A stretch of 64,000 nt of DNA from an uncultured Acidobacteriota bacterium (GTDB lineage: Bacteria; Acidobacteriota; Thermoanaerobaculia; UBA5066; Gp7-AA6), in assembly GCA_963776755.1 (NCBI GenBank), contig CAVZNW010000001.1:68866-132865 (forward strand), given 5' to 3'. The first letter of the stretch is position 1. Every line of letters starts with the position of its first letter. Shown here piece by piece: positions 9,352 through 39,959 of this stretch. Made by a program: the position numbers and the translations under genes. The notes under the pieces were generated by a model. It did not search any database. It saw only the letters and a list, made by a program, of their open reading frames with translations, and was not told the origin of the DNA.

Positions 9352-9648
9352 CTAGCGCCGGGGCGGGGCGCGAGAGGAGAGCGATTCGGACCGAGCCGGA
9401 TCGCGGAGGGCGTCAGCGCCGTGAGCGTAAACGCCGCCGACGTGCCCCGGCGGGGGCGCCTGCGGGCCCGGGACGGTCTCGAGGATCGCGTCCGCCGGCG
9501 CATGCGAGGTGGGCGCGGTGCCCGACTCGAGGCGGCTTTCGTCGTCCTCGAGGAGTGCGTCCCCGGTCGGACCGTACTCGAGCGGGAGGAGGACGAGGGA
9601 TATCAGGACGATCAGGATGACGGCGGGAACGGCCCAGGGCCTTTTCAT
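9352..9648 (-). CDS. Small (98 aa) N-terminally anchored membrane or secreted protein, acidic and Pro-rich tail, unknown function
   Basis: [43 protein letters not shown]... Its ATG overlaps the P5 stop (ATGA at 9645-9648). It ends at TAG 9352-9354, 63 nt before the P4 start. It is the tail of an off-frame track ORF (9352..10995). Confidence 0.55.
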
Positions 9649-12068
9649 GGCAGGAGTCCAAAGGTCTTGACGATGAACGTGGCCATCTGTCCGCGGGTGA
9701 TGGGATTTCCGGGGCAGTAGAGCGGGGGGGACACGCTGCAGCCGGCGGTGATGCCTCGGGCGACGAGGTCCTCGATCCAGTCGTCCGCGAAGGCGCCCTG
9801 GGGGACGTCGTCGAAGACCGTCCCGGTCGCCGGAGGAGGAACGTAGCCCGGTCCGTAGGCCGTGTTGAGGAGGAAGACGGCCATCTGCGCGCGCGTGACG
9901 GAGGCGTCCGGGCAGTAGTTCCCGCCGCCGCACCCGGCGGTCAGGCCCTGCCGCTGGAGCTCCTCGATCCACGGGGCGTAGATGTTCGAGGCCGGCACGT
10001 CGGGAAAGACGGTGCCGGTCGCCGGCGGCGGCGTGAAGCAGAATCCGAGCCGGGCCTTGATGAGGAACGCGGCCATCTGGCCGCGGGTCGTCGGGTTGTC
10101 GACGCAGTAGAAGCCGCCGCCGCAGCCGACGGTGACGCCGTTGGAGACGAGGCGGATGACGAAGCCGTAGAACTGGTGCGCCGCCGGAACGTCCAGGAAG
10201 TCGGCCACCCAGCCCTTCAGGAGCGTGCCGGCGGTCGTGTCCGGATTGGTCACGACGACATCGTTGAGCGATCCCGGCGGCAGCGCCGGAGCGTTGGCCG
10301 TGATCTTCGTGTCGCTGACTCGGACGACGTTGGACGGCGCGACGCCCGCGATCGCGACGGTGACGGCCGGGTCGAAATTGGTGCCGGAGATCGACACCGC
10401 AGTGCCGCCGGCGGCCGGGCCCGAGGCCGGCGTGATGGCGAAGACGATCTGCTGCGAGAACTCGGAGGTGTTCCCGTCGCCGTCGGTCGCCGTCGCCGAG
10501 ACCGGGGACCCGGCGGGAATCGTGACCGAGAAGGTCGACGCCAGATCGGCGAAACCGTTTGCGTCCGTCACGTAGAGGGCCGACGCAAAGTAGTGCTCGC
10601 CCTGGAGGAAGTCCCGCGGCCGGAAGTTGCAGGCGTTCCAGTAGAAGTCGACGGTGACGGCCGTGTCGGGCGCGCCGCGGTACGCGCCCTCGATGTGCGT
10701 CGTTCCGGCGCCGGGCGTCACGGACCGGATGAGCGGAAAGTTCAGCAGGCCGTTCGAGCCCGTGTCGACGTCGCCGTCGTCGTTGGGCGTGACGCTGTCG
10801 TGATCGAGATCGATGCCCGTCGCAGGATACCCGGTCCCCGTGGTTTCCCGGTTGCGAAAGATGCTGTTGCGGCGAATCGACGTCCGGAACGTGTTGGCCA
10901 TCGCCACGCCGCTCGACCCGTTGTAGGCGATGACGTTGCCCGCCCCGACGCCGGTCCCTCCGATCTGGTTGTCCATGGGGAACGTGAATGCCCACCCGCT
11001 GTTGATGCCGCTCGCATAGTTTCCGAGCGCCGCGGTGCCGTTGACGTCCGTGCCGATCCGATTCCCCTGGATCGTGTTGTCGCTTCCTCCCCAGAGCTGA
11101 ATCCCGTGGAGTCCGTTGGCGGAGATGACGTTGCCCTCGCCCGCCCCCGAGCCGCCGACGAGATTGCCGTTCGAGCCGAGGTAAATGCCGGACCCACTGT
11201 TGCGAATGGGCTGCGTGCCGGTGATGTCGGTTCCGATGAAGTTCCCCTGGATGGTCGTCCCGTCGGCGAGGTACAGATTGAGTCCGGAGCCGTCGTTCCC
11301 GGACACGACGTTGCGCGATCCCGGCGCTGCGCCGCCGATCACGCCCGAGAAGGAGTTGACCACGTAGATTCCGTCGGTGCCATTGCCCATGGCGGTCGTT
11401 GCGCTGCGATTGGTTCCGACGAAGTTACCGGCGATGACGTTACCGGTGCCGCCGTCCATGGTGATCCCGCCGAAGGCGTTTCCCGAAATGAGGTTGCGGG
11501 TGCCCGGAGTCGTCCCGCCGATCCGGTTGTTCGAGGAGCTCACTCTGACGCCGTCGATGTTGGGCAGGGCCGTCGTGCCCGCGGCGTCCGTGCCGATGAA
11601 GTTGCCCTCGACGGCGTGCCCACCGGTCCCGCCCACGAAAATCCCGGCGCCGTATGTGCCGGCTCCAACATGGTTGATGACGAGGCCGCGAATCGTGCTC
11701 CCGGAGCCCTGGAGCTCGAGGCCGTTGAAGCCGGCTGCGAGATTCGTGGCGTCGATCTCGATGAGGATGACGGCGTCGTCGCCGGCGACCAGCGTGTTGG
11801 GCGAGGCGCCCGGCTGCGAGTAGCCGTCGATCGTGACGAATTCCGTGATCGCCGGCAGCGGCGTTAGCGGAGTGATCGTATGAACGCCGGCCCCCGGGAT
11901 GTCGAAGACGATGAGGTCCTGTCCGGACAGCGCGTTCGCGTCGAGGATCGCCTGGCGCAGCGATCCGGCGCCGGAGTCGTTCGTGTTGACGACGGTGAAC
12001 GTGACTCCTCCGGCCAGCAACGGTCCGGCGGCCGCCAGAAGCAGAGCGCCGGCGGCAAGACGCATCAT
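9645..12068 (-). CDS. P5: array paralog, intact (807 aa)
   Basis: [21 protein letters not shown]|[24 protein letters not shown]; coils; [20 protein letters not shown]; IPT; SLH-like repeats with a variant tail (..[48 protein letters not shown]-stop). The part of the track ORF upstream of 12068 is an off-frame read. Confidence 0.9.
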
Positions 12069-12083
12069 CCTGTCGCGCCACGG

Positions 12084-12124
12084 AGAAAAAGCGCCGGGGC
12101 GGCCGAGTGCCTGGCCACCCCGGC
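12084..12124 (-). terminator. Canonical intrinsic terminator (12-bp GC stem, 8-nt loop, U5) ending 16 nt before the P5 start codon
   Basis: Minus strand reads GCCGGGGUGGCC-AGGCACUC-GGCCGCCCCGGC-GCUUUUUCUCC. There is one G.U pair; the rest of the stem is perfect. Confidence 0.7.
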
Positions 12125-12288: not shown

Positions 12289-14556
12289 TCACTGAAGAGA
12301 GAAGGTCTTGACGACGAACACGGCCATTTGTCCCCGGGTCGCGGGATTCGACGGGCAGTAGTTGCTTCCGCCGCAGCCTCCGGTGATGCCTTCGGCGTTG
12401 AGCTGCTCGATCCAGTCGGCAAAAAGGGACGGGCAGGGCACATCGTCGAATGTGCCCGCGCAGAGCGGCGGGACGTAGCTCGAGCCGTGGGCGGCCTTGA
12501 GCAGGAACGGGGCCATCTGGTCGCGCCGGACGGGATTGGTGGGGCAGAAGTTGCCGCCGCCGCATCCTCCGGTGATGCCCTCGTCCGCGAGGGCCTCGAT
12601 CCAGTCGGCGAAGGTGGACGGGCAGGGGACGTCGCCGAAGTCGCCGTTGCAGGCAGGCGGGACGTAGCAGAGGCCGTGCCTGGCCTTGAGCAGGAAGACG
12701 GCCATCTGCCGCCGCAGCGTCGGCTGGTCGACGCCGTAGTTGCCTCCACCGGTCCCGACGGTGATGGTGTTGGAGACGAGCGTCGTGACGAAGGCGTGGA
12801 ACTGGTGCGATTCCGGCACGTCGAGGAAGTCCGAGACCCAGCCGTTGGTCAGGACGCCGATGTTGGCCGGCGTCGTGACGACGACGTCGTTGAAGGTCCC
12901 CGGCGCGAGACCGGGAGACGTGGCCGTCAGCGTCTGGGAGTCGACGAAGGTGACCGGAACCGACACGCCGCCGATCGTCATGGTCGTGGGATCGACGAAA
13001 TCCGTTCCGGAAGCGCTCAGCCCTGTGCCGCCCGCGGCGGGGCCGGAGGCCGGGCTGATCGAAAAGATGATCCGCTGCGAGAACTCCGAGGTGTTGCCAG
13101 CGGGGTCGGTGGCCGTCGCGGAGATGCGAGCGCCGGCCTCGGTCGCGATCGGCAGCGTCACGTCGATCGCGGCGTCGCCCGAGCCGTCGGTCGTCACCTG
13201 GGTGGCCCCGAGGTAGGTCTGGCCCTCCAGGAACTCCCGCGGGAAGCTCGAGCAGGCGGGGTTCGCGAAGAACTCGAGGTCGAACGTGGTCGAGGCCGCT
13301 CCATGGAAGCTGCCCAGAATCCGCGTGCTGCCCGCCCCCTGCGGCGCGAGGTGCTCCACGGACTGGATCAAGGGAAAGTTCTGCTGCCCGTTGGGGCCGC
13401 TGTCCACGTCGCCCACGTCATTGGGCGTCACACCGCCCGTGGGAGCGAGGTCGATCCCGAGAGTTCCGTTGTCGAAAATCGAGTTTCGGCGAATCGTGGC
13501 CGGCATCGAGCCCCCGGTACCCACGTACGCGTCGACGCCGTAGAACCTGCTCTCCGAGATCACGTTGCGCTCGACGAGCGACGGGCGGTTGACGTCGAGT
13601 GGTATGCCGACGTCGAATCGAATGATCGAGTTGTCCTCGATCACCGTGGAGCCCCCGGTCTGCGTCACGAAGAGGGCGAACTGCGTCGAGCCGGACCCGT
13701 TGGCGGCCGAGTCGTGGAACAGGTTCCGGGAGATCGTGACCGTTCCGGTCGGACCGATGCCCGGATTTCCGAAATCGACTCCGTCGAAGGAGCCGTTGAA
13801 CTCGTTCTCCTCGATGGTGACCGTGTCCACCGCGGGACTGAGAAACACGACGCTGCGCCAGCGCGCGAAGCCCAGGAGGTTGCTCTGTATGGTGGCGTTG
13901 GTGCCACCGGTGATCCGGATCAGGTTGTTCTGCGTCTGGGCGGCGCCGCCCGGGTTCGTGTAACTCGTCGCACCGGCGCCGATCACGTTCGCCTCGATGA
14001 CGGTGCCCGCTCCGCTCTGCACGTCGATGTTGCCGCTCCCCACGCCGACTCCGGAAAAGTCTCCCCCGCCGTGGAGGGCGAGGCCCCGGATGGTCACGGC
14101 ATCCGCCTGGACGGTGAGGATGGCGCCGGAGAGATTCCGGCCATCGATCTCGACCTCGGGCCCGTTCAACTGCGGCAGCGCGGGCTCGTCCCCGGTGCCC
14201 GTCCGGCCGTCCGGGCCGGTGCCGACGGTGCCCCCGGTCCCGAGCGTCACGTCGTTGGTGTTGCCGCCGTTGGCGGTCTGCGTCGTGCCGTCGACCGTGG
14301 TTCCCGGACACGTGATCGCCGGCAGGGGGGAGAGCGGCGTGATGACGGCGACGCCGTTCGACAGCAGCCCGCCCGGAACGTCGAAGGCGATGGTGTGCGG
14401 TCCGCCGTTGGGGAAGTCCGGGACGCAGCCTTGCGCGTCGGTCAGGGCCTGCCGAAGCGAGCCCGGGCCGGAGTCGTCCGTGTTGGTCACGGTGAACGTG
14501 GCCGCGGAGAGCGGCAGCGAGATGGCGCAGAGGAGGATCGAGGCGATTCGCTTCAT
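12289..14556 (-). CDS. P6: array paralog with divergent N-cap and beta-helix core, intact (755 aa)
   Basis: [18 protein letters not shown]|[45 protein letters not shown]... The core lacks the usual GN.IGTD rhythm. From [21 protein letters not shown] onward it is canonical (Ig-like, IPT, 3 SLH-like repeats, VKTFSLQ-stop). The start has the TAAAGGACTCCATG junction. Confidence 0.92.
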
Positions 14557-14564
14557 GGAGTCCT

Positions 14565-15457
14565 TTACTGAAGGCCGAAGGTCTTAGTGATGAACACGGC
14601 CATCTGACCGCGGGTGCTGGTGCCGTCGGGGCAGTAGAGGGGAGGTGACGCCTGGCAGCCGCCGGTGATGCCTTCGACGGAGAGTCGCTCGATGAAGTCG
14701 ACGGCGGCCGCGCCCGGGCAGGCGACGTCGTCGAAGACGCCGGCGCAGGCGGGCGGCACGTAGCTCGAGCCGTACTTGGCCTTCAGCAGGAAGACGGCCA
14801 TCTGCCGGCGGGTGACGAAGTTGTTGGGGCAGAAGTTGCCGCCGCCGCATCCGGTCGTGATCCCCTCGGCCGCCAGAGCCTCGATCCAGTCGGCGAAGGT
14901 GGAGGGGCAGGGGACGTCGGGAAAGACGTTGGCGCACGGGGGAGGGACGTAGCAGAGGCCGTACTTGGCTTTCAGGAGGAAGACGGCCATCTGCTGTCGC
15001 TTCGTGCCCTGGTCGACGCCGTAGAGGCCGCCGCCGACCCCCGCCGTGATGCCGTTGGACACGAGGGTGACGACGAAGGCGTGGAAGCCGTGTGCCGAGG
15101 GCACGTCGAGGAAGTCCGACACCCAGCCCTTGATCAGCGTCGCCGTCGTTCCGTCGGACGTCGTGGCGACGACGTCCTGCGAGGTTCCCGGAGCGAAGGC
15201 GGGCATGACGCCGCTCAGCTGATGGTCGTTGACGAACGTCACACCCGTGGCTGGAATGCCGCCGACGGTCAGCGTCGTCGGGTCGGCGAAGTCGGTGCCG
15301 GAGGCGGTGAAGGGAGTTCCTCCGGTATCGGGGCCCGAAGCGGGTGAGATCGAGAAGAGGATCCGCTGCGAGAACTCGGACGTGTTGCCGTTGGGGTCGG
15401 TGGCGGTCGCCGCGATGCGCGCCCCGGCCTCCGTCGCCACGGGCAGCGTGACGTCGA
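14565..15457 (-). repeat. 3' module of P7, about 90% identical (by eye) to the P8 3' module
   Basis: Aligns base for base with 16610..17503 apart from scattered, mostly third-position differences and one extra base in P8. Similarity drops abruptly upstream of ..GACGTCGA. Confidence 0.8.
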
Positions 15458-16601
15458 AAGTCGCATTTCCGCTTCCGTCGGTCGTGACCGCCGACAGGCC
15501 GAGCCACGTCTGACCCTCGACGAACTCGCGAGGGAAGTTGGAGCAGGCCGGGTTCGAATAGAAGTCGAGGTCATAGGTCGTTGAGGGGGCGCTGCCGAGC
15601 TTGCCGACGATCCGCGTGCTGCCCGTGCCCTGCAGCCCCAGGTGCTCGACGGATCGAACGATAGGGAAGTTCTGCAGATTGTTCGCTCCCGTGTCCGTGT
15701 CGCCCGGGTCGTTTGCCGAAGGGCCGACCGCTCCGAGGAGCTCGATGCCGAGGGCGCCGTTGTCGTGGATCGAGTTGCCGCGGATGACGTTTCCGCTGCC
15801 GGCCGCGGCCTCGCCCGCCCAGCCGTAGTACTGGCTGAACGCGATGACGTTGGCCTCACCGGCCACCGTGCCCCCGACGGTGTTGTTGTTTGCGCCTCCG
15901 ATGCCGGCAGAGCCCAGGCCCGATTGGTTGCCGAGAGGGCTTACGCCGTCCTTTTGCGTGCCGATGAAGTTGCCCTGGATGACGTTGCCGCTGCTCAGGA
16001 TGAAAATGCCCCCTCTTCCATGGGCCGAGATCACGTTGCGGGCCCCGGGCGTCGTTCCGCCGATGACGTTGTCCGGGGCGCTCAATACGACGCCGTCGTC
16101 CTCGTTGCCCAGTCCGACCGTCCCACTGGCATCGGTGCCGAGGAAATTGCCTTCGACGTGGTTCCCTGCGGTCGTCAGGACGATCGCGTTTCCAGCCGAC
16201 AGGCCCCGGTAACGATTGATCACCAAACCTCGTACGGTGCTTCCTCCGGCACTGATGACGAGGCCGTTCGAATCTGGCCCGGCGCCGGCCCCGTTCAGCT
16301 CGATCAGGAGCGTGCCGTTGAACCCGTTGGGGTCGGTGTTCGGGCTGGCACCGGTCTGGGTGTAGCCGTCGATGACCACGGGATCGAAGATCTGCGTCAA
16401 TTCCGAGGCCGGGCTGATCGTCTGGACTCCCGCGCCCGGGATGTCGAACGCGATGGTGTCGAGGCCCGGGTTCGCATTGGCGTCGACGATGGCCTGCCGC
16501 AGCGACCCCGGCCCGGAGTCGTCGGTGTTCGTCACGGTAAAAGTCGCCGCGGCCAGCGGCAGGGAGATCGCGAAGAGGAGGATCGAGGCAAATCGCTTCA
16601 T
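14565..16601 (-). CDS. P7: array paralog, intact (678 aa)
   Basis: MKRFASILLFAISLPLAA|[24 protein letters not shown]..; coils; ANDPGDTDTGANNLQNFPIV; IPT; SLH-like x3 with a PGAAAVDFIERL / PPLYCP tail; ends ITKTFGLQ-stop. It is the last in-frame segment of track ORF 14565..19190. Confidence 0.92.
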   Translation of the reverse strand: MKRFASILLFAISLPLAAATFTVTNTDDSGPGSLRQAIVDANANPGLDTIAFDIPGAGVQTISPASELTQIFDPVVIDGYTQTGASPNTDPNGFNGTLLIELNGAGAGPDSNGLVISAGGSTVRGLVINRYRGLSAGNAIVLTTAGNHVEGNFLGTDASGTVGLGNEDDGVVLSAPDNVIGGTTPGARNVISAHGRGGIFILSSGNVIQGNFIGTQKDGVSPLGNQSGLGSAGIGGANNNTVGGTVAGEANVIAFSQYYGWAGEAAAGSGNVIRGNSIHDNGALGIELLGAVGPSANDPGDTDTGANNLQNFPIVRSVEHLGLQGTGSTRIVGKLGSAPSTTYDLDFYSNPACSNFPREFVEGQTWLGLSAVTTDGSGNATFDVTLPVATEAGARIAATATDPNGNTSEFSQRILFSISPASGPDTGGTPFTASGTDFADPTTLTVGGIPATGVTFVNDHQLSGVMPAFAPGTSQDVVATTSDGTTATLIKGWVSDFLDVPSAHGFHAFVVTLVSNGITAGVGGGLYGVDQGTKRQQMAVFLLKAKYGLCYVPPPCANVFPDVPCPSTFADWIEALAAEGITTGCGGGNFCPNNFVTRRQMAVFLLKAKYGSSYVPPACAGVFDDVACPGAAAVDFIERLSVEGITGGCQASPPLYCPDGTSTRGQMAVFITKTFGLQ

Positions 16602-16609
16602 GGAGTCCT

Positions 16610-17503
16610 TTACTGAAGGCCGAACGTCTTGACGATGAAGACCGCCATCTGTCCGCGGGTGCTGGTGCCGTCGGGGCAGTAGAGGGGAGGCGAGGCCTGG
16701 CAGCCGCCGGTGATTCCCTCGACGGAGAGCCGCTCGATGAAGTCGACGGCGGCCGCTCCCGGGCAGGCGACGTCGTCGAAGATGCCGGCGCAGGCCGGCG
16801 GAACGTAGCTGGAGCCGTACTTGGTCTTCAGGAGGAAGACCGCCATCTGCCGCCGGGTGACGAAGTTGTTGGGGCAGAAGAAGCCGCCGCCGCAGCCGGT
16901 CGTGATGCCCTGGGCCGCGAGCTCCTCGATCCAGTCGGCGAAGGTGGACGGGCAGGGGACGTCGGGGAAGACGTTGGCGCAGGGGGGCGGGACGTAGCAG
17001 AGGCCGTACTTGGCTTTCAGCAGGAAGACGGCCATCTGCTGGCGCTTGGTGCCCTGGTCGACGCCGTAGAAACCGCCGCCGACGCCCGCGGTGATGCCGT
17101 TGGAGACGAGGGTGACGACGAAGGCGTGAAAGCCGTGTGCCGCGGGCACGTCGAGGAAGTCCGAGACCCAGCCCTTGATCAGCGTCGCCGTCGTTGCCGT
17201 CGGACGTCGTGGCGACGACGTCCTGCGAGGTGCCCGGAGCGAAGGCGGGCATGACGGCGCTGAGCTGATGGTCGTTGACGAAGGTGACGCCCGTGGCGGG
17301 AACGCCGCCGACGGTCAGCGTCGTCGGGTCGGCGAAGTCGGTGCCGAAGGCCGTGAACGGCGTGCCTCCGGTATCCGGGCCCGAAGCCGGTGAGATCGAG
17401 AAGAGGATCCGCTGCGAGAACTCGGACGTGTTGCCGGCGGGGTCGGTGGCGGTCGCGGCGATGCGCGCCCCGGCCTCGGTCGCCACCGGCAGCGTGACGT
17501 CGA
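16610..17503 (-). repeat. 3' module of P8, partner of 14565..15457
   Basis: See the P7 repeat entry. Confidence 0.8.
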
Positions 17504-18809
17504 TCGCGGCGTCACCGTTGGCGTCGGTCGTGGCCTGGGATGTGCCCAGGTAGACCTCGCCCTCGAAGAGCTCGCGCGGGAACTTCGCGCACGCCGGGTT
17601 CGAGTAGAAGTCGAGATCGAAGGTCGTCGTGGGCGCGCTGTTGAACTTGCCGACGATCCGCGTGCCCCCGGCACCCTGCAGCCCGATGTGCTCGACGGAC
17701 TGGAGAATCGGGAAGTTCTGCTTCCCGTTGACTCCGCCGTCGGCGTCTTGCGGGTCGTTGAAGCTCGGACCGTCGCTCGCGAGATCGATGCCGAGCCCGG
17801 CGTTGTCGTGGATCGAGTTGCCGCGGATCGCGTTCTTCGAGCCGCCGTTGCCGGTCACGTTGACCCCGGCATTGGAGTTGTACGCGATGACGTTGCCCTC
17901 GCCGGGGGCGAGACCACCGATCGTCGTCGTGTCGCCCCCGACATTCATCTGGATGCCGTCGCCGTTGCCGAGCGGCCCGTTGCCGTCGGCGGTGGTCCCG
18001 ATGCGGTTGCCCTGGATGACGTGATGGGTGTTGCTCTGCGACAGGAAGATCCCGATTCCGTTGCCGGAGATGACGTTGCCCGCGCCCGGCGCCGTCCCGC
18101 CGACCGTCACGTCGGCGGCGGAGAGGAGAATGCCGATGCCGTTGGGGATGGCCCGGGTTCCCGTCGCGTCGGTTCCGATGAGGTTGCCCTGGATGACGCC
18201 GTTGGGTCCGGGGTTGATCGCGGAGTTGAGGCAGCAGGCGGCGTTGCCGGAGATGAGGTTCCGGTCTCCGGGCGCCGTTCCGCCGACCCGTTCGCCAGGC
18301 GGGCCCACGCTGACCCCTCCGCTGTTCGGCAGTGCAAAAGAGCCGCTGGGATCCGTGCCCACGAAGTTGCCCCGAATGACGTTGCCGCCGGCAATCCCGG
18401 TCTGCAGGGCCGTCCCCCAGCGGTTGATCACGAGGCCCTGGATCGTCGAGCCGCCGCTGGGCGAGGCGATGAGCCCCACGGCGCCGGTCGTGGCGCTCCC
18501 GTCGAGCTCGATGAGAAGAACCGCGTTCGTCGCCACGGGATCCGTGTTCTCGGTCGCGCCCGGCTGCGAATAGCCGTCGACGAGCGCGGCCTCGGAGACC
18601 AGGGGCAGCGACGTCGCCGGCGTGATCGTATGGACGCCGGTTCCGGGAATGTTGAATGCGATCGTGTCGAAGCCGGGGGTTCCGTTGGCGTCGAGGATCG
18701 CCTGCCGCAGGGATCCCGGTCCGGAGTCGTCGGTGTTCGTCACGGTGAAGGTCGCCGCGAAGAGGGGCAGCGAGGTCGCGCAGAGGAGGATCGAGGCAAT
18801 TCGCTTCAT
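16610..18809 (-). CDS. P8: array paralog, one frame break as assembled (extra base ~17196)
   Basis: [18 protein letters not shown]|[24 protein letters not shown].. runs in the frame of ORF 14565..19190 up to ..VVATTSDG. The tail is track ORF 16610..17149 (..HGFHAFVVTLVSNGITAGVGGG..IVKTFGLQ-stop). Compared with P7 (cgttccgtcgg), P8 reads cgttGccgtcgg. Length is 2200 nt. Confidence 0.88.
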
Positions 18810-18817
18810 GGAGTCCT

Positions 18818-20888
18818 TTACTGGAGGCCGAAAGTCTTGACGATGAACACGGCCATCTGTCCGCGAGTCGAGGAGTTGTCGGGGCAGTAGAGCGGCGGCG
18901 AAGCCTGGCAGCCGCCGGTGATGCCCTCGGCGGCGAGGCGCTCGATGAAGTCGACGGCGGCCGCGCCCGGGCAAGGGACGTCGTCGAAGACGCCGGCGCA
19001 GGCGGGCGGGACGTAGCTGGAGCCGTGCTCGGTCTTGAGGAGGAAGACCGCCATCTGTCGCCTGGTGACGAAGTTGTTGGGGCAGAAGTTGCCGCCGCCG
19101 CAGCCGGTCGTGATGCCTTCCGCGGCGAGGGCCTCGATCCAGTCGGCGAAGGTGGAGGGACAGGGCACGTCGGGGAAGGCGCTGGCACACGGGGGAGGCA
19201 CGTAGCAGAGGCCGTGCTCGGCCTTCAGGAGGAAGACGGCCATCTGCTGGCGCTTGGTGCCCTGGTCGACGCCGTAGAGACTGCCGCCGACCCCGGCGGT
19301 GATGCCGTTCGAGACGAGGGTCGTGACGAACGAATAAAACTGATGCGCCGGCGTGACGTCGAGAAAGTCGGCGACGAAAGCCTTGGGGAGGGTGCCGCGG
19401 CTGCCGTCGAGGTTGGTCACGACGATGTCGTTGACCGTGCCGGCGGCAAGCGCGGGCGCCGTGATCGTCGCCGACGTGAAGGAGTTGACGGTGACTCCCG
19501 CCGCCGCGACTCCCCCGACCGTGACCGCCGCACCGTCGAGGAAGTCGGTGCCCGTCAAGCCGAGGATGGCACCGCCGGCGGGCGGTCCCGAGGAGACGCT
19601 CGTCGCGAACGGGATTCGCTGCGAGAACTCCGACGTCTTTCCCGCCGGATCGGTGGCGGTCGCGGTGATGCGGGCGCCGGCGGCGACGGACACGGGAAGC
19701 GTGACGTCGAATGCGCCCGTGCCCGAGCCGTCCGTCGAAACCTGGCCCGAGCCGATGTAGGTCTGGCCCTCGAGGAACTCGCGGGGAAATCGGGAGCAGA
19801 CGGGGTTCTCATAGAAGTCGAGGTCGAAGGTCGTCGACGGAAGCGAGTGAAGGACCCCCTGGATTCGAGTCGAAGCCCCCGACGGCAGCAGTGCCTCGAC
19901 GGAGGAGACGATCGGGAAGTTCTGCTGGCCGTTGGAGCCGCCGTCGCCGTCGCCCGCGTCGTTCGGGAGCGGCAAGTTCGGGTCCGACTGACTGCCTAGG
20001 CGGATGCCCAGAAAGCCGTTGTCGAAGATGGAGTTTCCGCGGATCGTGAGCGTCTGGGAGTCGCCGCTCGAGCCGATGCCGACTCTGGAATTGCCCGCGA
20101 TGATGTTGCCTTCTTCGGGCGTGAGGCCGCCGATCGTCGACGTCGTCGGCCCGAGCCCCGAGAACGAAATGCCGAACTGTTCGTTCGGGATCGCCGCGGT
20201 CGCGTTCTTGTCGAGGCCGATGATGTTCCCCTGGATGACGGAGGTCGATCCGCCGTTGAAGTTGCTGCTCACGCTGATCGCGACGTTGGTGTTTCCGGAG
20301 ATCAGATTTCGATCCTCCGGATTCGTTCCTCCGATCGTGGCGCTGACGGTTCCGCCCTGGGTGAACGCGATGTCGACTCCGATCCCATTGGGCGACGCGG
20401 AGAGGCCGGTCGCATCCGTGCCGAGGAAGTTGCCGGCGACGACGATGCCCGTGGGGCTGCCCGAGATGGGGTTGGTGAGCTGGATGGCGTCGCTGCACCG
20501 GTTGATGACGAGACCCCGCACCGTCGTGTCGCTGGCGAGGATCGTGATGCAGCGGTTCGGCGCCGAGGTGCCGTCGATCTCGATCTGCAGGGCCGTGTTC
20601 AGCCCCCCCGTGGCATTCGTGTTGGCGGCGCTGCCGGGCTGGGTGTAGCCGTCGATCGTCACCGGGTTCGAGATGATCGGCAGCAGCGAGAGAGGCGTGA
20701 TTGTGTGCACCCCCGCTGCCGGGGATGTTGAAGGCGATCGTGTCGGCCCCGGGGCTGGCCTCGGCGTCGAGGATCGCCTGCCGCAGCGACCCCGCTCCGG
20801 AGTCGTCGGTGTTCGTCACCGTGAAGGTGGCCGCGGAGAGCGAGGCGCAGACCGCGAGGGAAAGACCCAGCGATCCGAGGATCTTCAT
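18818..20888 (-). CDS. P9: array paralog, one frame break as assembled (C5/G5 run 20710-20714)
   Basis: AGGGAG lies 7 nt before ATG 20888: MKILGSLGLSLAVCASLSA|[40 protein letters not shown]. An extra G in ..AGC GGG GGT GCA.. then shifts into ORF 18818..20710 ([26 protein letters not shown] ... IVKTFGLQ-stop). Confidence 0.88.
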
Positions 20889-21130: not shown

Positions 21131-21718
21131 ATGGAGAACAAGGACCAAGCGCCCCCCGGCGAGGTGACCGGCCTCCTGCTGGCCTGGAACGCCGGTGATC
21201 GGGCGGCGCTCGAGCGGCTGATGCCGCTCGTCTACGCGGAATTGCGCGCGATCGCGGAGCGCCACTTCCGCCGGGAGCGCCCGGGACACACGCTCCAGCC
21301 GACCGCCGTCGTCCACGAGGCGTACTTCCGGCTCGTCGACCAGACGCGGGTGACCTGGCGAAACCGCGGCCACTTCCTGGCGATCGCCTCGCAGGCGATG
21401 CGCCGGATCCTGATCGACCACGCGCGCGGCCGGGACGCCGAGAAGCGGGGCGGGCATGCCGAGCGCGTGACGCTCGACTTCGGGATGGAGATGGCCTCGC
21501 CCGAGCCCGGACGCGATGTCGACCTGCTGGCGCTCGACGAGGCCCTCGAGAGGCTCAAGGCGCTCGACGTCGCGCAGGCGCAGATCGTGGAGCTGCGCTT
21601 CTTCGGGGGACTGACGATCGAGGAGGCGGCCGACGTCATGGAGACCTCGCCTTCGTCGGTCAAACGCGACTTTCGCTCGGCGAAGGCCTGGCTGTTCCGC
21701 GAGCTCGCCCTGGGATGA
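21131..21718 (+). CDS. ECF-type RNA polymerase sigma factor (kinase-linked subtype, TIGR02999/ECF43-like from memory)
   Basis: 195 aa. EVTGLLLAWNAGDRAALERLMPLVYAELRAIAERHF...TAVVHEAYFRL (region 2). IVELRFFGGLTIEEAADVMETSPSSVKRDFRSAKAWL (region 4 HTH). The stop overlaps the kinase start (ATGA 21715-21718). Confidence 0.9.
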   Translation: MENKDQAPPGEVTGLLLAWNAGDRAALERLMPLVYAELRAIAERHFRRERPGHTLQPTAVVHEAYFRLVDQTRVTWRNRGHFLAIASQAMRRILIDHARGRDAEKRGGHAERVTLDFGMEMASPEPGRDVDLLALDEALERLKALDVAQAQIVELRFFGGLTIEEAADVMETSPSSVKRDFRSAKAWLFRELALG

Positions 21719-24159
21719 CTCCCGAGCGCTGGAGACGCGTGCGGGAAATCTTCGACCGCGCCGCGGATCTGGCGCCGGGTGAGCGCGACCGGTTCCTGGC
21801 CTCGGAGTGCGGCCCCGACCCGGGCCTCGACGCCGAGGTCCGGTCGCTCCTCGCCTCGGGCGCGGCGGCGGGCGCGTTTCTCGAGGTCCCCGCCGCCGAG
21901 CAGGTCGGCCGCTGGGCCCCGGCGGCGCCGGAACCGCTGCCCTCCTCGATCGGGCCGTGGGAAATCGTTCGAGAGCTCGGGCACGGCGGGATGGGCGCGG
22001 TCTACCTCGGCGTGCGCCGCGACGGGGAGTTCGAGCGCACCGCGGCCGTCAAGCTCGTGCGCCGCGGCATGGACACGGACTTCATCCTGCGGCGCTTCCG
22101 GACCGAGCGCGAGATCCTGGCCGGGCTCGATCACCCCAACATCGCGCGCCTGCTCGACGGAGGTTCGACCGCGGAGGGGATTCCGTACTTCGCGATGGAG
22201 TACGTGGAGGGCGACCACCTGCTCGAGGCGTGCACGGCGCGCGGCTGGGACGAGCGCGCGAGGATCGGGCTCTTTCTCCTGGTCTGCGAAGCGGTGGCCT
22301 ACGCGCACCGGCACCTCGTGGTCCACCGGGACCTGAAGCCGTCGAACATTCTCGTCACACCGGAGGGCGTGCCGAAGCTCCTCGACTTCGGCCTGGCGCG
22401 CCTCCTTCAACCGGAGGCGGGGCAGGTCGGCGAGAGGACGGAAACGATGTTCCGGCTGCTCACGCCCGACTACGCCAGCCCCGAGCAGGTGCGGGGCGAG
22501 CGCATCACGACGGCGACCGACATCTACTCCCTCGGTGTCGTGCTCTACCACCTGCTCGCGGGCCGGAGCCCCTATCGCACGACCGGGTCGGCGGAAGCGA
22601 CCGCCCGCGCCGTCTGCGACCAGGAGCCCGAGAAGCCGGGCCTCTCCCGCGACCTCGACAACATCGTGCTGATGGCCCTGCGCAAGGAGCCCGAGCGCCG
22701 CTACGACTCGGTCGGCGCGCTCGCCGAGGACCTGAAGCGCTACCTCGAGGGCCGGCCGGTGGTCGCCCGGAAGGACACGCTCGCGTACCGCACCGGCAAG
22801 TTCGTCGCGCGGCACAAGGCCGGGACGGCCGCGGCGGCGCTCGGGGCGCTGGCCCTCGTCGCCGCCCTCGCCGCCGCCGTGCACCAGGCGCGCGTCGCCG
22901 GCCTCGAGCGGGCGGCGGCCGAAAGGCACTTCAACGACGTCCGCCAGCTCGCGGACTCGTTCCTCTTCGAGTTCCACGACGCCATCAAGGACCTCCCCGG
23001 ATCGACGCCCGCGCGGGAGCTCGTGGTCCGCCGGGCGCTGGAGTACCTGGAGAAGCTGTCGAGCGTGAAGAGCGGAGACCCGGACCTCCAGCGCGAGCTC
23101 GCGTCGGCGTACGAGAGGGTCGCCCGGGTCCAGGGGGGCCTCTTCGAATCGCACCTGGGCGACACGGAGGGCGCCCGCGAGAGCCTCCTGCGGGCCGTCC
23201 AGATCCGGGAGAGGCTCGCCGGAACGGGCGCGCCGGCGGCGCGCGACCGGGCCGCCCTGGCCGAGACGGAGCTTCAGCTCGCGCAGGTCCTGATGGTGGC
23301 GGGCGACGCCTCCGGAGCGGCGGCGCAGGCGCGGCGGGCGCTCGCGGCGCTCACGGCCCTCTCGGCGGCCTCGCCCGGCGACCGGGTCATCGAGGCGCGC
23401 CTCGCCCGGGCCCACCGATATCTCGGCGCGGCGCTCTCGCGCGAAGGCGCGCGCGAGGAGGGGATCGCGGAGCTGCGCACGGCGGCGCGGGCCTTCGAAG
23501 CCCTGGCCGCGGCCGAGCCGTCGAGCGCCGCCTACCAGCGCGAGCTCGGGATCACGCACCAGATGATCGTCCATGGTCTCGGCGGCACCGGCGAGCGCGA
23601 GGCGGCGCTGGAGAGCTACGCGAAGGCGGTCGTGCTGCAGGAGGATCTCGTCCGCGGCGAGCCCGGCAACTTCTCGCTCAAGCGCGAGCTCGCCTACACG
23701 CACGTCAGCATGGGCGCGTTCTGCGAATGGAGCGGCGATGCGAAGGGCGCCCTGCAGGCCTACCGGACGGCGCTGCCGATTCTCGAGTCGCTCGTCGAGG
23801 CCGATCCCCGGAACGCGGACGCGCGGCTCCTGCTGGCCGAGACCCGCAACAGCGTCGGGTACGGCCAGGCGTTGTCGGGACAGACGGCGGCGGCGCTCGA
23901 GAACCTGCGCGGGGCCAGGGCGCTGCTCGAGCCGATCGTCGCCGCCGACCCCGCCAACGCGCGCGCGGCCCTCGACCTTGCGAGGCTCTACGAGAGCTTC
24001 GGCACGGCGCGCTCCGCCGAACGGGCGGAGGCGCTCGCCTGGTACCGGCGGAGCGAGGCCGCATACGTGGCGCTGCGCGCGCGCGGCCTCCTCGATGCGC
24101 AGGCCGCCCAGGAGCTCGAGGCGGTCTCGAAAAAGATCGCGGGCCTCAGTCCCGCCTGA
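21715..24159 (+). CDS. Ser/Thr protein kinase with one TM helix and a long TPR-like C-terminal domain, intact (814 aa)
   Basis: N-terminal MTPERWRRVREIFDRAADLAPGERDRFL. Kinase motifs GHGGMGAVYLG, AVKLV, HRDLKPSNILV, DFGLARLL, SPEQ. TM segment AAAALGALALVAALAAAV. The remaining ~420 aa are helical repeats. Confidence 0.92.
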   Translation: MTPERWRRVREIFDRAADLAPGERDRFLASECGPDPGLDAEVRSLLASGAAAGAFLEVPAAEQVGRWAPAAPEPLPSSIGPWEIVRELGHGGMGAVYLGVRRDGEFERTAAVKLVRRGMDTDFILRRFRTEREILAGLDHPNIARLLDGGSTAEGIPYFAMEYVEGDHLLEACTARGWDERARIGLFLLVCEAVAYAHRHLVVHRDLKPSNILVTPEGVPKLLDFGLARLLQPEAGQVGERTETMFRLLTPDYASPEQVRGERITTATDIYSLGVVLYHLLAGRSPYRTTGSAEATARAVCDQEPEKPGLSRDLDNIVLMALRKEPERRYDSVGALAEDLKRYLEGRPVVARKDTLAYRTGKFVARHKAGTAAAALGALALVAALAAAVHQARVAGLERAAAERHFNDVRQLADSFLFEFHDAIKDLPGSTPARELVVRRALEYLEKLSSVKSGDPDLQRELASAYERVARVQGGLFESHLGDTEGARESLLRAVQIRERLAGTGAPAARDRAALAETELQLAQVLMVAGDASGAAAQARRALAALTALSAASPGDRVIEARLARAHRYLGAALSREGAREEGIAELRTAARAFEALAAAEPSSAAYQRELGITHQMIVHGLGGTGEREAALESYAKAVVLQEDLVRGEPGNFSLKRELAYTHVSMGAFCEWSGDAKGALQAYRTALPILESLVEADPRNADARLLLAETRNSVGYGQALSGQTAAALENLRGARALLEPIVAADPANARAALDLARLYESFGTARSAERAEALAWYRRSEAAYVALRARGLLDAQAAQELEAVSKKIAGLSPA

Positions 24160-35106: not shown

Positions 35107-37515
35107 CTACGGCAGCGCGAAAGCATTCACCAGGAACGCGGCCATCTGGCCCCGCGTGACGTCGTTCTGCGGACAGAAGTTTTGTCCGCCGCAGCCGCCG
35201 GTCACGCCTTCCGCCTGCAGCTGCTCGATCCAGTCGGCGAAGGGCCCCGGGCACGGCACGTCCGCGAAGTGGCCGTCGCACGGCGGCGGGATGTACTGGG
35301 AGCCGTGCTTTCCTTTCAGCAGGAAGACCGCCATCTGGTCGCGGCGCACGGGGTTGGCGGGGCAGTAGTTGCCACCGCCGCAGCCGCCCGTGATCCCTTC
35401 CGCGGCGAGTTGCTCGATCCACGGCGCGAAGTTGTTCGAGCACGGGACATCCGGGAATACGCCGGAGCAGGGCGGGGGTATGTAGCACGCGCCGTGGGCC
35501 GCCTTCAGGAGGAAGACCGCCATCTGCTGGCGCTTCGTGTTCTGGCCCACGCCGTAAAGGCCCCCGCCGACGCCGGCGGTGATGCCGTTGCCGACGAGGC
35601 GCATGACGTACAGGTAGAACTGGTGGTTGGAGGCGACGTCGAGGAAGTCGGTCAGCCAGCCGTTGGGCAGCGTGTCGATCGGGCCGCCCGGGTTCGACAC
35701 GACGACGAATTGACGGAGCCCGGAGGAAGGCTGGGCGTCTTCAGCGTAAGCGTGTGCACATCGGTCACTTGCACGTTCGACGCCGCCGCGCCTGCCGACC
35801 GTGACCGTCGCTCCGTCCTCGAACGCGAGTCCCGTCAGGACGGTCGGTGCCGCCCGAGCGGTCCGTACGGCGGCAGGCTGTGAAAGATGCCGCGGGGCGA
35901 GAGCTCGGAGGTGTTGCCGCAGGGGTCCGTGCGCGGTGACGACACCGGCGACCCGTTGGGGAGAGCGACGGGCAGGACGACGTTCACGACGGCGTGGCCC
36001 GACCCGTCTGTCGTGGCCGTGCGTCGAGCCGATGTACGTCCGCGCCTCGGGCAGGTCCTGGGGACGACGTTCGCAGATCGGGTCCGCATAGAAGTCGAGG
36101 TCGTAGTGGTCGATGGCGTGCTGTCCAGCACGCCGACGACCGTCGTGGTCGAAGCGCCGTACGTGACGGAAGACAGGACCGGGAAGTTCTGTAGCCCGTT
36201 GGCCCCGGCGTCGCCGTCGCCGGCGTCGTTGAACGTGACTCCGTTGCCGGCGACGAGCAGGTCGATGGCGAGGCCGGTATGGTAGTTGCCGCCGGGGTTG
36301 TCGAAGATCGAGTTTCCGCGGATCGTTGCCTTGCCGGCGCTCTCGACGCCCGACGCCCGCCGATTCCCGGTGTCGACGATGACGTTTCCTTCTCCCGGAT
36401 TGACGCCGCCGATGACGGTCCCGGTCGCCAGGACGCGGATGCCGTAGGTCGGGTTGCGAAGGAGGATGCGGCCGGTCTCGTCCGTGCCGATGAAGTTGCC
36501 CTGGATCAGGGCCGGCCCGTCGCCGACTGGTACACGGAGATACCCGCGGCATCCGTTCCCCCGACGAGGTTACCGGCGCCCGGGGAGGCTGCCTCCACGG
36601 CTAGTCCGGGTCGTTGACGATGCACTCGCTGTGACGATCGACCGCGAAGGTCCCGGTGACGTCGTGTCCGACGAAGTTGCCTTGGATCATGTCGGACGTC
36701 GATGATGCCCGGGAGTGCCGACGCCGACGTCGTCCGTCGCTGAAGACGTTGCGGGCCGAGGCCGTGGCGCCTCCGACGAGCGGGCCGTGCCCGCGCCGGC
36801 AAAGACGCCGTTGCGGGCCCCTCAACCGCGCCGAGCGTCTCGAGTCCGGTAAGGCTTCGTGCGCGATCAGGTTCCCGGCGACCAGGCGTCGTGATCCCCG
36901 GGAGATCTGCACCCGACTGTAGCAGCCCGAGATCAGGTTCCGCCGCCGGGGTCGTTCCGCCGACCGGGCGTCGGTCGCTGGGTTGAACTCAGCGACGCCC
37001 TCGAGACGTTCCCGTGACGGGAACCTCGTTCGCCGTCGGTCGGTCCCGAGGAAGACGCCATCGACGACGGTTCGCGACCGACCGGAGCAGCGTCGATCTC
37101 GGCCGCCGTCGAGCAGTGGTCACCGCGAGGCCCCGCATCGTGACGTCGTCCGCGCTTCGACGATCAGGCAGTCGCGGCGCCGCCGCTCGTGCCGTCGATC
37201 TCGACCTGGAGGACCGTGTTCGAGGCCCGAGGCTGGTCGGGTTGGTGTTGGCCGACGACCCCGCCTGCGTGTAGCCGTCGATCGTCACCGCGCCGGTGAT
37301 CGCGGGCAGCGCGGAGGCGAGAGCGATCGTGTGCGGACCGGTGCCGACGATCGCCGAAGGCGATCGTGTCCAGGCCGGGGTTCGCCGTTGGCGTCGAGGA
37401 TCGCCTGGCGCAGGGACCCGGCGCCGGAGTCGGCGGTCGAGGTGACGGTGTAGGTGTTGCCGAGCGCGGCCGCGGACGCGAGAGCCCCGAAAACAACCGC
37501 CAGGATCCTCTTCAT
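35107..37515 (-). pseudogene. P13: array paralog, heavily frame-disrupted (at least ten breaks, stops in all frames 36.5-37.2 kb)
   Basis: Start MKRILAVVFGALASAAALG|[25 protein letters not shown] (ATG 37515, junction TAGGAGGGATCATG). Family pieces ([98 protein letters not shown]) are scattered over all three minus frames. The last ~190 aa (SLH-like x3, FLVNAFALP-stop) are intact. Confidence 0.75.
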
Positions 37516-37523
37516 GATCCCTC

Positions 37524-39959
37524 CTAAGGAAGCTTGAACGTCTTGACGAGGAACACCGCCATCTGGCCTCGCGTCACGTTGGAGAGCGGGCAGAAGTTGC
37601 CGCCGCCGCAGCCGCCGGTGATGCCTTCGACGCCGAGTTGCTCGACCCACGGCGCGAATTGATTGGTGCAGGGAACGTCCGCGAACGTCCCGGAGCAGGG
37701 CGGCGGCACGTAGGACGAGCCGTGCTCGGCCTTGAGGAGGAAGACGGCCATCTGCTGGCGCAGTGACGGGGTTGCCCGGGCAGTAGTTGCCGCCTCCGCA
37801 GCCGCCGGTGATGCCCTCGGCCGCGAGCGCTTCGATCCACGGAGCGAACCCCGACGGGCAGGGCACGTCCGGGAAGATCCCGCTGCACGGAGGGGGCACG
37901 TAGCAGATGCCGTACTTGGCCTTCAGAAGGAATACCGCCATCTGCTGGCGCAGCGTGCTCTGCGTCGGGCCGTAGTTGCCGCCGCCGATGCCCGCCGTGA
38001 TCCCGTCGACGACGAGCTGGATGATGTTCGTCCGGAACTGGGCGCCCGCCGGCACGTCGTTGAAGTCCGCGAGCCAACCGTTCGCCAGCGTTCCGGAGAG
38101 CCCGGCGGAAGGATTCTGGACGACGACGGGGTTGATCGTCCCGGCCGGCCGGGCCGGGACGTTGGCCGTGATCGTGTTCGCGTCGGTTACGACGACGCTG
38201 GTCGCCGCCGCGCCGCCGACGGTCACCGTCGCGCCGGCCTCGAAGGCCAGCCCCTTGATCTGCACCGCGGTGCCGCCGGCGGCCGGACCGGAGCCCGGCG
38301 TCATGGACAACACGAAGCGCGGAGAAAGCTCCGACGTGCTGCCGGAGGGGCTAGTCGCGGTCGCGGCGATGATCGAGCCGGCCGGCACGGCCACGGGGAG
38401 CACGGCGTTGAAGGTCGCGTTGCCCGAGCCGTCCGTCGTGGCCTGCGCCGAGCCGATGAAGGCCAGCGCCTCGGCGATCTCCTGCGGCCACCGGGCGCAC
38501 GTCGTGGCGTAGAAGTCGAGGTCGAACACGGTCGAGGCCGTGCTGTTGAGGACACCGGCCACGGTCGTCGTCGAGGCGCCGTACACGACCGACGCGATGA
38601 TCGGAAAGTTCTGGAGGCCGTTGGGCCCGCTGTCGGCGTCGCCGGCGTCGTTGAACGTGATGCCGTATGGACCGGTGGCATGGAGGTCGATCGCGACGCT
38701 CGGCTGGCCGTTCGTGTCGTAGATCGAGTTGCCGCGTACGGACACCTGCTGGCCCTCGACGAGCACGGCGGATCCCTGCGTGGCGACCCCCGGCGCCGGG
38801 CCGTTGTGGGCGATGACGTTGCCTTCGCCGGGCCCGGTTCCGCCGATGGTCACGCCGGTGGCGAAGGCGTAGATGCCGTTCGGCGCGTTCGGCAGGATCG
38901 CCGTCTCGGTCGGGTCCGTGCCGATGAAGTTGCCCTGGACGACGGTGCCGTCGCCCTTGATCTCGATTCCCGCCGCGCCGGCCGCGCCCGCGATGACGTT
39001 GCCGGCTCCCGCCGCGGAGCCGCCGATCGTGTTGTTCTGATGGTTGGCCGAAATGCAGTAGCCGTTGCAGCCGAGGGCGACCAGGCCCGTCACGTCGGTG
39101 CCGACGTAGTTGCCGATGGCGAAGTTGCCGGTGGCCTGGGTCCCGTTGCCGCCGGGCCCGAGGATGATCCGGTTGACGACGACGTTGCGCGCGGCCGCCG
39201 TCGTTCCGCCGACCGTGATGCCCGTTCCCGCGAAAATGCCGACCGACGAATCGGCCGTCGTCGAGATCTTCGCGGTGCCGGCGGCGTTTGTCCCGATGAG
39301 GTTGCCCTGGATCACGTGGCCCGAGTTCGGCGCGAAGAAGTTGCCGATCGTGATCTGGTTGTTGATCCCTCCGCCGGCGATCAGGTTGCGCGCCGCCGGC
39401 GTCGTGCCGCCGATCCGGGCGTTCGTGTGGTTGCCCAGACTGATCGCGCCGCCGTAGGGCGTCAGGGCCTGCGTCCCGTCGGCACTCGACCCGAGGAAGC
39501 AGCCCTCGACGACGAGGTTCTGGTGGGAGACCGTGACGGCTTCGATGGCCTGTCCCGTGCAGCGGTTGATCGCGAGGCCGCGGATGGTGACGTCGTCGGC
39601 CTGCACCGAAGGCACGCCGCGCTGCCGGCGCCCGTCCCGTTCAGCTCGATCCGGAGGACGGTGTTGAGCCCCTGGCTCGTCGGATTCGTGTTCGTCGAGG
39701 AGCCGGACTGCGTGTACCCGTCGATCGTGACGGGCCCGGTGATCGGGGGAAGGGCCGACGTCGGTGCGATCGTCTGAACGCCGCTTCCGACGATCCCGAA
39801 GGCGATCGTGTCCGCGCCCGGGTTGGCGTTGGCGTCGAGGATCGCCTGGCGCAGGGTCCCCGCGCCCGAGTCGGCCGTCGAAGTGACCGTGTACGTGGTC
39901 GCGGATGCCAGCGCTGCGGCGGCGAACAGGGCGGCGGCGAGGCCGGGTCGTTGAAGCAT
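37524..39959 (-). CDS. P14: array paralog, two frame breaks as assembled (~39615 and ~37762)
   Basis: GAAGGAGG SD, ATG 39959: MLQRPGLAAALFAAAALASA|[44 protein letters not shown]... (ORF 39462..40172). The body is in ORF 37285..40221 (VQADDVTIRGLAINRC...). The tail ORF 37524..37751 ends FLVKTFKLP-stop; an extra G follows ..GTC ACT. Confidence 0.82.

Follow-up and report, generated by a model that had tools for sequence, protein, structure and literature searches.

Probable gene conversion at the gene boundaries of a tandem S-layer-homology protein array in an uncultured Acidobacteriota bacterium

The DNA analysed here, referred to as the window, is a 64,000-nucleotide (nt) stretch of contig CAVZNW010000001.1 (positions 68,866 to 132,865, assembly GCA_963776755.1) from an uncultured soil bacterium of the Thermoanaerobaculia (Acidobacteriota). 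It carries a large tandem family of genes for putative surface proteins with S-layer-homology (SLH) domains, and the present analysis concerns four neighbouring minus-strand members, P9, P8, P7 and P6, together with the boundaries between them. At each internal boundary, the 3' end of one gene, a short spacer and the first codons of the next gene form a unit that is closely alike in its three copies, whereas the central parts, or cores, of the same genes are strongly divergent. It is likely, at a rough probability of 0.8, that these boundary units undergo concerted evolution by ectopic gene conversion, the cores being left divergent. As judged from sequence comparison, the four genes themselves are old paralogues of the family. 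The gene models, all on the minus strand, are the following (aa, amino acids; Ig-like, immunoglobulin-like):

18818-20888, minus strand: P9, first gene of the four-gene unit, with putative signal peptide, beta-helix, Ig-like domain, IPT/TIG domain and three SLH domains
16610-18809, minus strand: P8, 2200 nt as assembled, including one surplus C (17196) within the conserved block
14565-16601, minus strand: P7, intact, 678 aa
12289-14556, minus strand: P6, intact, 755 aa, fourth and final member of the unit
9645-12068, minus strand: P5, the next paralogue, about 220 nt from P6, used as the control

Mosaic structure of the four genes

The 23-nt string TCGCTTCATGGAGTCCTTTACTG occurs in three exact copies in the 64-kb window (n = 3), starting at 14548, 16593 and 18801; none is expected from shuffled sequences, and no fourth match is found in the window even when up to three mismatches are allowed. 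On the minus strand, all three copies read CAG TAA aggactcc ATG AAG CGA, in which the stop codon of the upstream gene is separated by 8 nt from the start codon of the downstream one; this spacer provides a Shine-Dalgarno-like AAGGA core. The three sites, located by the exact string, are:

14548..14570, minus strand: junction copy 1, P7 stop and P6 start
16593..16615, minus strand: junction copy 2, P8 stop and P7 start
18801..18823, minus strand: junction copy 3, P9 stop and P8 start

Comparison of the window with itself reveals that these junctions lie within much longer homologous units (n = 3), each of which covers, with no interruption, the last 0.5-1.1 kb of one gene, the 8-nt spacer and 110-125 nt at the start of the following gene. 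The unit at the P9/P8 boundary is the shortest of the three. The units and their pairwise alignments are:

14446..15653, minus strand: boundary unit J(P7/P6), made up of the last 1.09 kb of P7, the spacer and 110 nt at the start of P6 (blastn)
16477..17699, minus strand: boundary unit J(P8/P7), made up of the 3' part of P8, the spacer and ~125 nt at the start of P7 (self-comparison)
18685..19321, minus strand: boundary unit J(P9/P8), comprising the 3' 504 nt of P9 (three SLH), the spacer and the first ~125 nt of P8
14446-15653 against 16491-17699: 89.3% identity over 1209 nt, 1 gap (blastn)
16477-17113 against 18685-19321: 89.0% identity over 637 nt, 0 gaps
14447-15068 against 18700-19321: 88.4% identity over 622 nt, 0 gaps

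The sole gap in the first of these alignments corresponds to the extra base of P8. For the 3' blocks of P7 and P8 (14565-15457 and 16610-17503), 64 mismatches and one gap are counted in 894 columns (92.7% identity); 49 of the 64 mismatches (77%) fall on codon position 3, and 12 differences lie within the first 130 nt. The cores of these two genes reach only 56% identity. In the 622-nt block common to all three units, 85% of the columns are invariant, and the longest invariant runs measure 26, 25, 25, 23 and 22 nt, the run of 23 nt being the junction. As only the fourth-longest run, the junction is no more conserved than its surroundings and represents an ordinary part of the block. In its exact 20-nt form, it is absent from all 28 related loci, although a similar junction is present in locus L005; these loci were fetched from GTDB genomes, all of them Thermoanaerobaculia or Acidobacteriota metagenome-assembled genomes (MAGs). 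Given the three longer runs and this absence, the idea of a specially conserved junction element was rejected. An earlier, sequence-only reading of the window had described the three identical strings, their stop-spacer-start arrangement, about 12 differences in the first 130 nt, and a P7/P8 block of ~0.9 kb and ~90% identity with a third-position bias, and each of these observations is reproduced here. It had also treated the junctions as a mark in their own right; their identity stands, but they give no separate signal, since they belong to a larger continuous block.

The likeness is confined to the three internal boundaries of P9-P8-P7-P6, and the 5' end of P9 and the 3' end of P6 are of other types. 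In P6, the homogenised unit covers only the first ~110 nt, and the 3' end of the gene is 0.75 identical to those of P7-P9. The sequence immediately 5' of P9 (20889-20903, minus strand; AAAGGGAGTCTCCGATGAAG) resembles the internal junction (AAAGGACTCCATGAAG), and this likeness suggests that the spacer descends from the family's ancestral ribosome-binding region. Another 8-nt junction of distinct sequence (TAG gagggatc ATG) is observed at 37515-37526 on the minus strand, between copies c10 and c11, while the other array spacers in the window range from 21 to 456 nt.

The mosaic nature of P7 is readily apparent from the informative sites that it shares exclusively with its neighbour P8 or with L2gA, a gene of a related locus that groups with P7 in its core:

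P7 aa 1-30: 22 sites shared only with P8, 1 only with L2gA
P7 aa 31-270: 41 sites shared only with P8, 179 only with L2gA
P7 aa 391-660: 101 sites shared only with P8, 18 only with L2gA

For the mosaic triplets of P7, P8, P9 and P6, the observed MaxChi value was reached in 0 of 1000 permutations each (p < 0.001), and the P5 control gave p = 0.055. Breakpoints are located near P7 aa 18-30, 382 and 497-525, the last being that of the P9 unit. The P7/P8 breakpoint, at about aa 382-390, coincides with the last strands of the Ig-like domain. Synonymous divergence (dS) changes accordingly along the genes: in codon alignments, the P7-P8 3' block shows dS 0.27, nonsynonymous divergence (dN) 0.031 and dN/dS 0.115, and the core shows dS 0.96 and dN 0.42. 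Furthermore, P9 differs from P7 and P8 by a dS of 0.33-0.41 in the SLH part and of 1.0-1.2 in the adjacent upstream IPT part. Neighbour-joining trees follow the same division. The SLH tree sorts by genome, into (P7,P8,P9), (L3gB,C,D) and (L2gA,B), and the leader-region tree unites (P6,P7,P8). The core tree sorts by orthology: the P7 core groups with L1g4, L2gA and L3gB, and the P8 core is not its sister.

Orthologues of the five genes were identified in the related loci at the following positions:

P7 orthologues: L001 9980-12028; L002 382-2418; L003 1419-3446
P8 orthologues: L005 10001-12199; L009 9941-12136
P9 orthologues: L005 18904-20970; L010 5577-7646
P6 orthologues: L001 14509-16755; L009 18619-20871; L010 12251-14530
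P5 orthologue: L005 14629-17052

The cores of P6-P9 are 0.76-0.89 identical at the nucleotide level to their orthologues elsewhere and 0.53-0.61 identical among themselves, which indicates that the paralogues predate the splits from those genomes. In particular, the P7 core (aa 46-330) is closest to L1g4 (0.76), L2gA (0.75) and L3gB (0.70), compared with 0.61 to P8; the cores of P8 and P9 reach 0.80 and 0.89 with their L005 orthologues, and that of P6 reaches 0.84 with its orthologue. The ends behave in the opposite way. Over P7 aa 386-505, identity is 0.94 to P8, with orthologues at 0.76-0.80 (P7) and 0.81-0.82 (P8); in the SLH part, it is 0.92 to P8 against 0.78-0.84 to the P7 orthologues and 0.78-0.87 to orthologues overall. 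At the N-terminus, values of 0.86-0.89 within the window compare with 0.59-0.82 to orthologues; for P6 specifically, the figures are 0.86-0.89 to P7/P8 and 0.66-0.82 to its own orthologues. The ends of P8 are likewise nearer to P7, and P9 falls from 0.89 in the core to 0.63 at the N-terminus and 0.75 over aa 386-505 when compared with its L005 orthologue. Overall, at the ends of P8, P9 and P6 the orthologues are no better a match than the paralogues in the window, or a clearly poorer one. The P5 control exhibits no mosaic and remains 0.90-0.96 identical to its L005 orthologue in every region.

Gene conversion and the alternative explanations

The proposed explanation is that non-allelic homologous recombination among neighbours, in the form of gene conversion, repeatedly overwrites the boundary unit; the process would be of the RecA type, as we infer from the pattern. 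The overwritten segment would take in one gene's 3' end, coding for three SLH domains, the IPT domain and a portion of the Ig-like domain, then the 8-nt spacer that serves ribosome binding, and finally the codons for the following gene's signal peptide. Repeated overwriting would keep the three internal boundaries of the presumed operon 88-94% alike, and the beta-helix cores, which would escape conversion, would retain their separate and older histories. The identical 23-nt junctions would then be a mere part of the converted tracts. After the last conversions, both partners would have accumulated mostly synonymous changes under purifying selection, from which it is proposed that all four genes are functional. 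The conversions do not appear to be very recent, since the blocks differ by 7-11%, which is about the level of P5 against its closest orthologue (0.90-0.96).

Several points weigh against this explanation. The four-unit arrangement is taken from the assembly alone, in which many single-base insertions are present, so that some fine detail may be wrong, and the MAGs used for comparison are themselves draft assemblies. In the SLH part of P9, identity within the genome (0.87-0.88) barely exceeds that to the orthologue (0.85). The 3' blocks of P7 and P8 are equidistant from the outgroups, and consequently favour no particular direction or number of conversions. Finally, loss of a parental copy after a single unequal crossover could produce the same picture as one of the events.

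Of the alternatives, one survives best, although it is unlikely as a replacement for conversion: unequal crossing-over at boundary units would remodel the array, and like boundaries would be copies carried along with moved cores. The variation of gene order among close relatives is consistent with it. In the window, the sigma factor at the head of the array is followed by P9-P8-P7-P6-P5; in L005, the order is sigma factor, P8 orthologue, b, P5 orthologue and then, further on, the P9 and P6 orthologues. Moreover, the leader peptide tracks position and not core: the first gene of L009 has the core type of P8 and the leader type of P9. A 3'-end relic within the L001 g6/g7 spacer, and the agreement with the model of a two-gene-spanning unit in the lpl cluster of Staphylococcus aureus (PMC2568036), point in the same direction. 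However, a single crossover predicts that P7 should be first P6-like and then P8-like, whereas P7 aa 31-380 match neither and instead match its own orthologues; nor does the window hold a second P7 or P8 core of more than 80% identity. A single unequal crossover as the sole cause was rejected on account of this two-ended mosaic of P7. Remodelling and conversion are not exclusive, being two outcomes of the same ectopic recombination, and probably both occur.

It is very unlikely that whole gene units were recently duplicated in tandem and that the beta-helix cores then diverged rapidly under positive selection, the ends remaining constrained. In favour of such a history, the copies are adjacent, co-oriented and separated by identical spacers; the core dN is high (0.42), and the ends encode a signal peptide and an anchor, which are constrained across the family. 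On the other hand, the core dS is near saturation (0.96 versus 0.27 in the block), so selection on the protein sequence cannot be the cause. No paralogue in the window comes as close to a P6-P9 core as that core's orthologues do, the core of P8 is not the sister of that of P7, and identity is uneven along the unit (core 56% versus block 89-93%). Constraint alone cannot make the ends closer within the genome than to orthologues. The sequence-only reading had offered this duplication and the homogenisation of ends by conversion side by side. The former does not agree with cores at 0.76-0.89 to orthologues and 0.53-0.61 to one another, and the word 'recent', which that reading applied to the process, was overstated for blocks differing by 7-11%. 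The latter is favoured by the within-genome clustering of ends, the orthologue clustering of cores, the significant breakpoints and the dS of 0.27 versus ~0.96. The placement by that reading of the drop in similarity inside the Ig-like module agrees with the breakpoint found here, and the contrast between ends and core persisted in sliding windows and in dS, identity being non-uniform along the genes.

An assembly artefact, which would require the assembler to jump from one paralogue or strain to another at common k-mers, or to expand one of the units, is extremely improbable. In its favour, the assembly is of metagenome type with many single-base insertion errors, and no source reads were found (none of the DNA and RNA runs searched held more than 10% of the sampled words). 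Against it, the units differ by 11% and share no exact run longer than 49 nt, unique parts are matched exactly by short-read contigs assembled from other soil metagenomes, one independent short-read contig (15593-15809, 0 mismatches) crosses the block/core boundary of P7, and 12 independently assembled related loci have the same pattern. The 11% divergence, the 49-nt limit and the shared architecture of the relatives make collapse or expansion unlikely, and the 77% of differences at third codon positions, together with a dN/dS of 0.1, indicate separately evolving genes.

The protein family, its arrays and their candidate regulators

In the window, 23 paralogues of the family were detected by tblastn and a family hidden Markov model, all of them on the minus strand and together covering ~86% of the 64 kb. 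Their products are predicted to be Sec-secreted surface proteins anchored via SLH domains, presumably to the wall. The leader, as seen in the sequence, consists of MKR, a hydrophobic stretch and an AAA/T site. In P7, Pfam matches to SLH (2.7e-11) and TIG (5.7e-9) are obtained; several paralogues also match Beta_helix/NosD, and the SLH matches (PF00395) have E values from 2.7e-11 to 4.3e-14. The AlphaFold2 model of P7 (44 sequences, mean pLDDT 87.6, 78-90 in the SLH part) places a right-handed beta-helix at about aa 20-300 after the leader at the N-terminus, followed by an Ig-like sandwich at 314-401, an IPT domain at 416-495 and three SLH domains at 506-678. R535/Q537, R598/Q600 and R664/Q666 are invariant and occupy TRAE-like positions. 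In Foldseek searches, the SLH part resembles the SLH trimers of Sap and SpaA with TM scores of 0.79-0.80 (3pyw, 6cwr and 6bt4 at 0.74-0.80), and the helix part retrieves 8wm1, a phage tailspike and the capsule depolymerase VexL. The match of P7 aa 12-287 (~15740-16570) to PDB entry 8wm1, deposited as a 3-dehydroshikimate dehydratase, is weak in sequence (E 1.8e-5) and has a Foldseek E value of 2.4e-15. More than 7,800 relatives are found in the database, those with names being Thermoanaerobaculia S-layer-homology or IPT/TIG proteins; no record of the P7 protein itself was found there, and a literature search returned no paper that pairs Thermoanaerobaculia with S-layer homology.

The array is interrupted twice, each time by a plus-strand extracytoplasmic function (ECF) sigma factor followed by a Ser/Thr kinase with TPR. 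The features surrounding the four genes are:

21131-21718 and 21715-24159, plus strand: ECF sigma factor and Ser/Thr kinase with TPR, divergent from P9 (Pfam)
~45277-48745, plus strand: second ECF sigma factor and Ser/Thr kinase with TPR, divergent from the first sub-array gene
12093..12124, minus strand: terminator-like hairpin on the 3' side of P6, with 11 G-C pairs among its 12 and a T run after it (consensus scan)

For the 21131-24159 pair, the Pfam matches are Sigma70_ECF (5.8e-54) and Pkinase (8.3e-44). Both sub-arrays whose first gene lies inside the window begin next to such a divergent pair. Furthermore, a sigma/kinase pair adjoins the arrays in 11 of the 28 related loci by tblastn (L001, L004-L007, L009, L010, L013, L014, L016 and L019), where the sigma factor is up to 94% identical. 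These modules are therefore candidate regulators of the arrays. A promoter scan found no sigma-70-type site, which is expected if the ECF sigma factor drives the array. The terminator scan returned 8 sites against 6.3 expected, that at 12093..12124 being by far the strongest, and P9-P8-P7-P6 probably form one operon, with its predicted end at this hairpin after P6.

In the relatives, 3' blocks of 0.3-1.0 kb with 80-97% identity between array paralogues are present in all 12 loci examined (for example, 97% over 361 nt in L002, 92.8% over 806 nt in L004 and 90.8% over 884 nt in L011), and tight spacers of 7-9 nt recur. In L005, the P9 and P6 orthologues are direct neighbours, linked by TAG aggacacc ATGAAGCGAGTCGCCTCGATCCTCCTCTGC, which is the junction type of the window; this type must consequently be older than the split from L005. 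The P6 orthologue keeps it there even though the upstream gene differs from that in the window. It is probable that reciprocal recombination at boundary units also reorders, inserts or deletes cores. Between two array genes, the spacer at L001 16756-16830 contains remains of the 3' end of a further gene (..ctcatcgtcaagacgttcaatttgcagTAA, translated as ..IVKTFNLQ and a stop); they are the trace of an earlier deletion or recombination event between paralogues. The skip and joint contigs of run X4 were not accepted as evidence of rearrangement, their sequences being 90-95% alike and carrying unmatched letters at the joints. Arrays of ~80 kb on single contigs were observed in related MAGs (L009/L011/L012 and L010/L013/L021).

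As assembled, P8 (2200 nt) and P9 (2071 nt) have lengths that are not multiples of three, and the frame of P9 is broken where one G too many stands in a G5 run (about 20712-20716). Both frameshifts are most likely insertion errors of the assembly. Related metagenome contigs omit a base at 20718 (P9) and 17194 (P8), and every indel of related-strain contigs from several metagenomes relative to the window is the omission of one base at a frame-break site. Removal of one base restores full-length proteins with 82-85% identity to orthologues: P9 becomes a 689-aa protein with 85% identity to its L005 orthologue over 673 aa, and P8 a 732-aa protein with 81.6% identity. In total, 22 frame breaks, mostly +1, affect 14 of the 23 copies, with error-dense stretches at 24.1-27.2, 35-40 and 48.6-55.7 kb. 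Single-copy minus-strand genes for a di-haem cytochrome c peroxidase (~27150-26000) and a metallophosphoesterase (~25990-24880) each carry at least five +1 shifts. Since single-copy genes are shifted too, relatives do not have the extra base and one-base removal restores P8 and P9, pseudogenes or silent cassettes were rejected. Phase variation at homopolymers was also rejected, because the P9 site alone lies in a G5 run and most sites lie outside runs.

A spurious open reading frame (ORF) of 1415/1541 aa extends over 14565..19190 on the minus strand, joining the N-terminal part of P8, about 180 out-of-frame, Arg-rich residues and the whole of P7. The 1541-aa ORF results from the extra C at 17196 and, at 68% G+C, from a lack of stops in the off-frames; automatic gene calling would probably annotate it, falsely, as a fusion protein. 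Array genes of the related loci at L009 14244-16451 and at L010 3224-5479 and 7655-8041 have out-of-frame tails or are cut short, which suggests that errors of the frameshift type in this beta-helix/IPT/3xSLH family are probably common in public MAGs.

Relation to known systems and significance

The closest parallel in pattern is offered by the babA/babB and homA/homB genes of Helicobacter pylori, the 3' segments of which evolve in concert (Pride & Blaser 2002, as summarised in PMC3960876). As in the window, the 3' segment is described in that summary as closer within a strain than between strains, and the rest of the gene follows orthology (PMC3960876). The pattern is ascribed there to RecA-dependent intragenomic gene conversion of surface-protein paralogues (PMC3960876). 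In contrast to the window, these genes are dispersed and not in tandem, and their tract does not extend via a spacer to a neighbouring gene; they also encode outer-membrane beta-barrel adhesins of a pathogen, whereas the window encodes presumed SLH-anchored beta-helix proteins of a soil Acidobacterium. In the lpl cluster of S. aureus, the recombining unit covers two adjacent genes (PMC2568036), and the unit of the window likewise spans two, with blocks that are continuous over the spacer. The lpl genes are conserved in the centre, which is the recombination site, and variable in the boundary unit. The window is the mirror image of this arrangement, in that the boundary is conserved and homogenised and the centre is most divergent (0.53-0.61).

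The sap genes of Campylobacter fetus share a conserved 5' region and are served by a single invertible promoter and silent copies. Unlike these, the copies in the window are full length, each with its own start codon, ribosome-binding spacer and C-terminal SLH triplet, and no invertible element was seen among them, although no search aimed at one was made. The likeness consists in a cluster of surface-protein homologues with shared recombining segments; about eight clustered surface-layer homologues are present in C. fetus, where such segments recombine into chimeras (PMC4943207). Variation of the cassette type, with silent donors as in C. fetus sap, pilS or vlsE, does not describe the window, in which the copies are full length and the frameshifts are assembly errors. 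At the protein level, the C-terminal 173 aa of P7 are predicted to fold as a three-SLH pseudo-trimer like those of Bacillus anthracis Sap and Paenibacillus alvei SpaA. The triplet is N-terminal in these Firmicutes proteins and C-terminal in the window, where each repeat additionally has a Cys pair (CGGGNFC) and the motif TR(G/R)Q instead of TRAE.

The mechanism proposed here is a textbook one, and the finding provides a clean, controlled example of it and no new principle. It illustrates that concerted evolution can act on a unit other than a gene, in this case a gene boundary composed of an anchor, a spacer and the next signal peptide. For annotators, this implies that whole-gene trees of the beta-helix/IPT/3xSLH family are misleading, and that the frameshifts and the 1,400-1,500-aa 'fusion' ORF in the record are assembly errors, neither pseudogenes nor fusions. 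The family itself is very large and undescribed, and occurs in the Thermoanaerobaculia, a widespread uncultured soil group. A more far-reaching idea, which is tentative and at present rather doubtful, is that boundary units serve as portable recombination sites by which Thermoanaerobaculia shuffle, gain and lose hypervariable beta-helix cores in operons controlled by ECF sigma/kinase pairs. The varied gene order, the position-bound leader, the 23 copies and the conserved regulator pair are hints in this direction. If true, such shuffling would be the environmental counterpart of surface variation in pathogens, serving perhaps phage evasion or polymer/substrate specificity.

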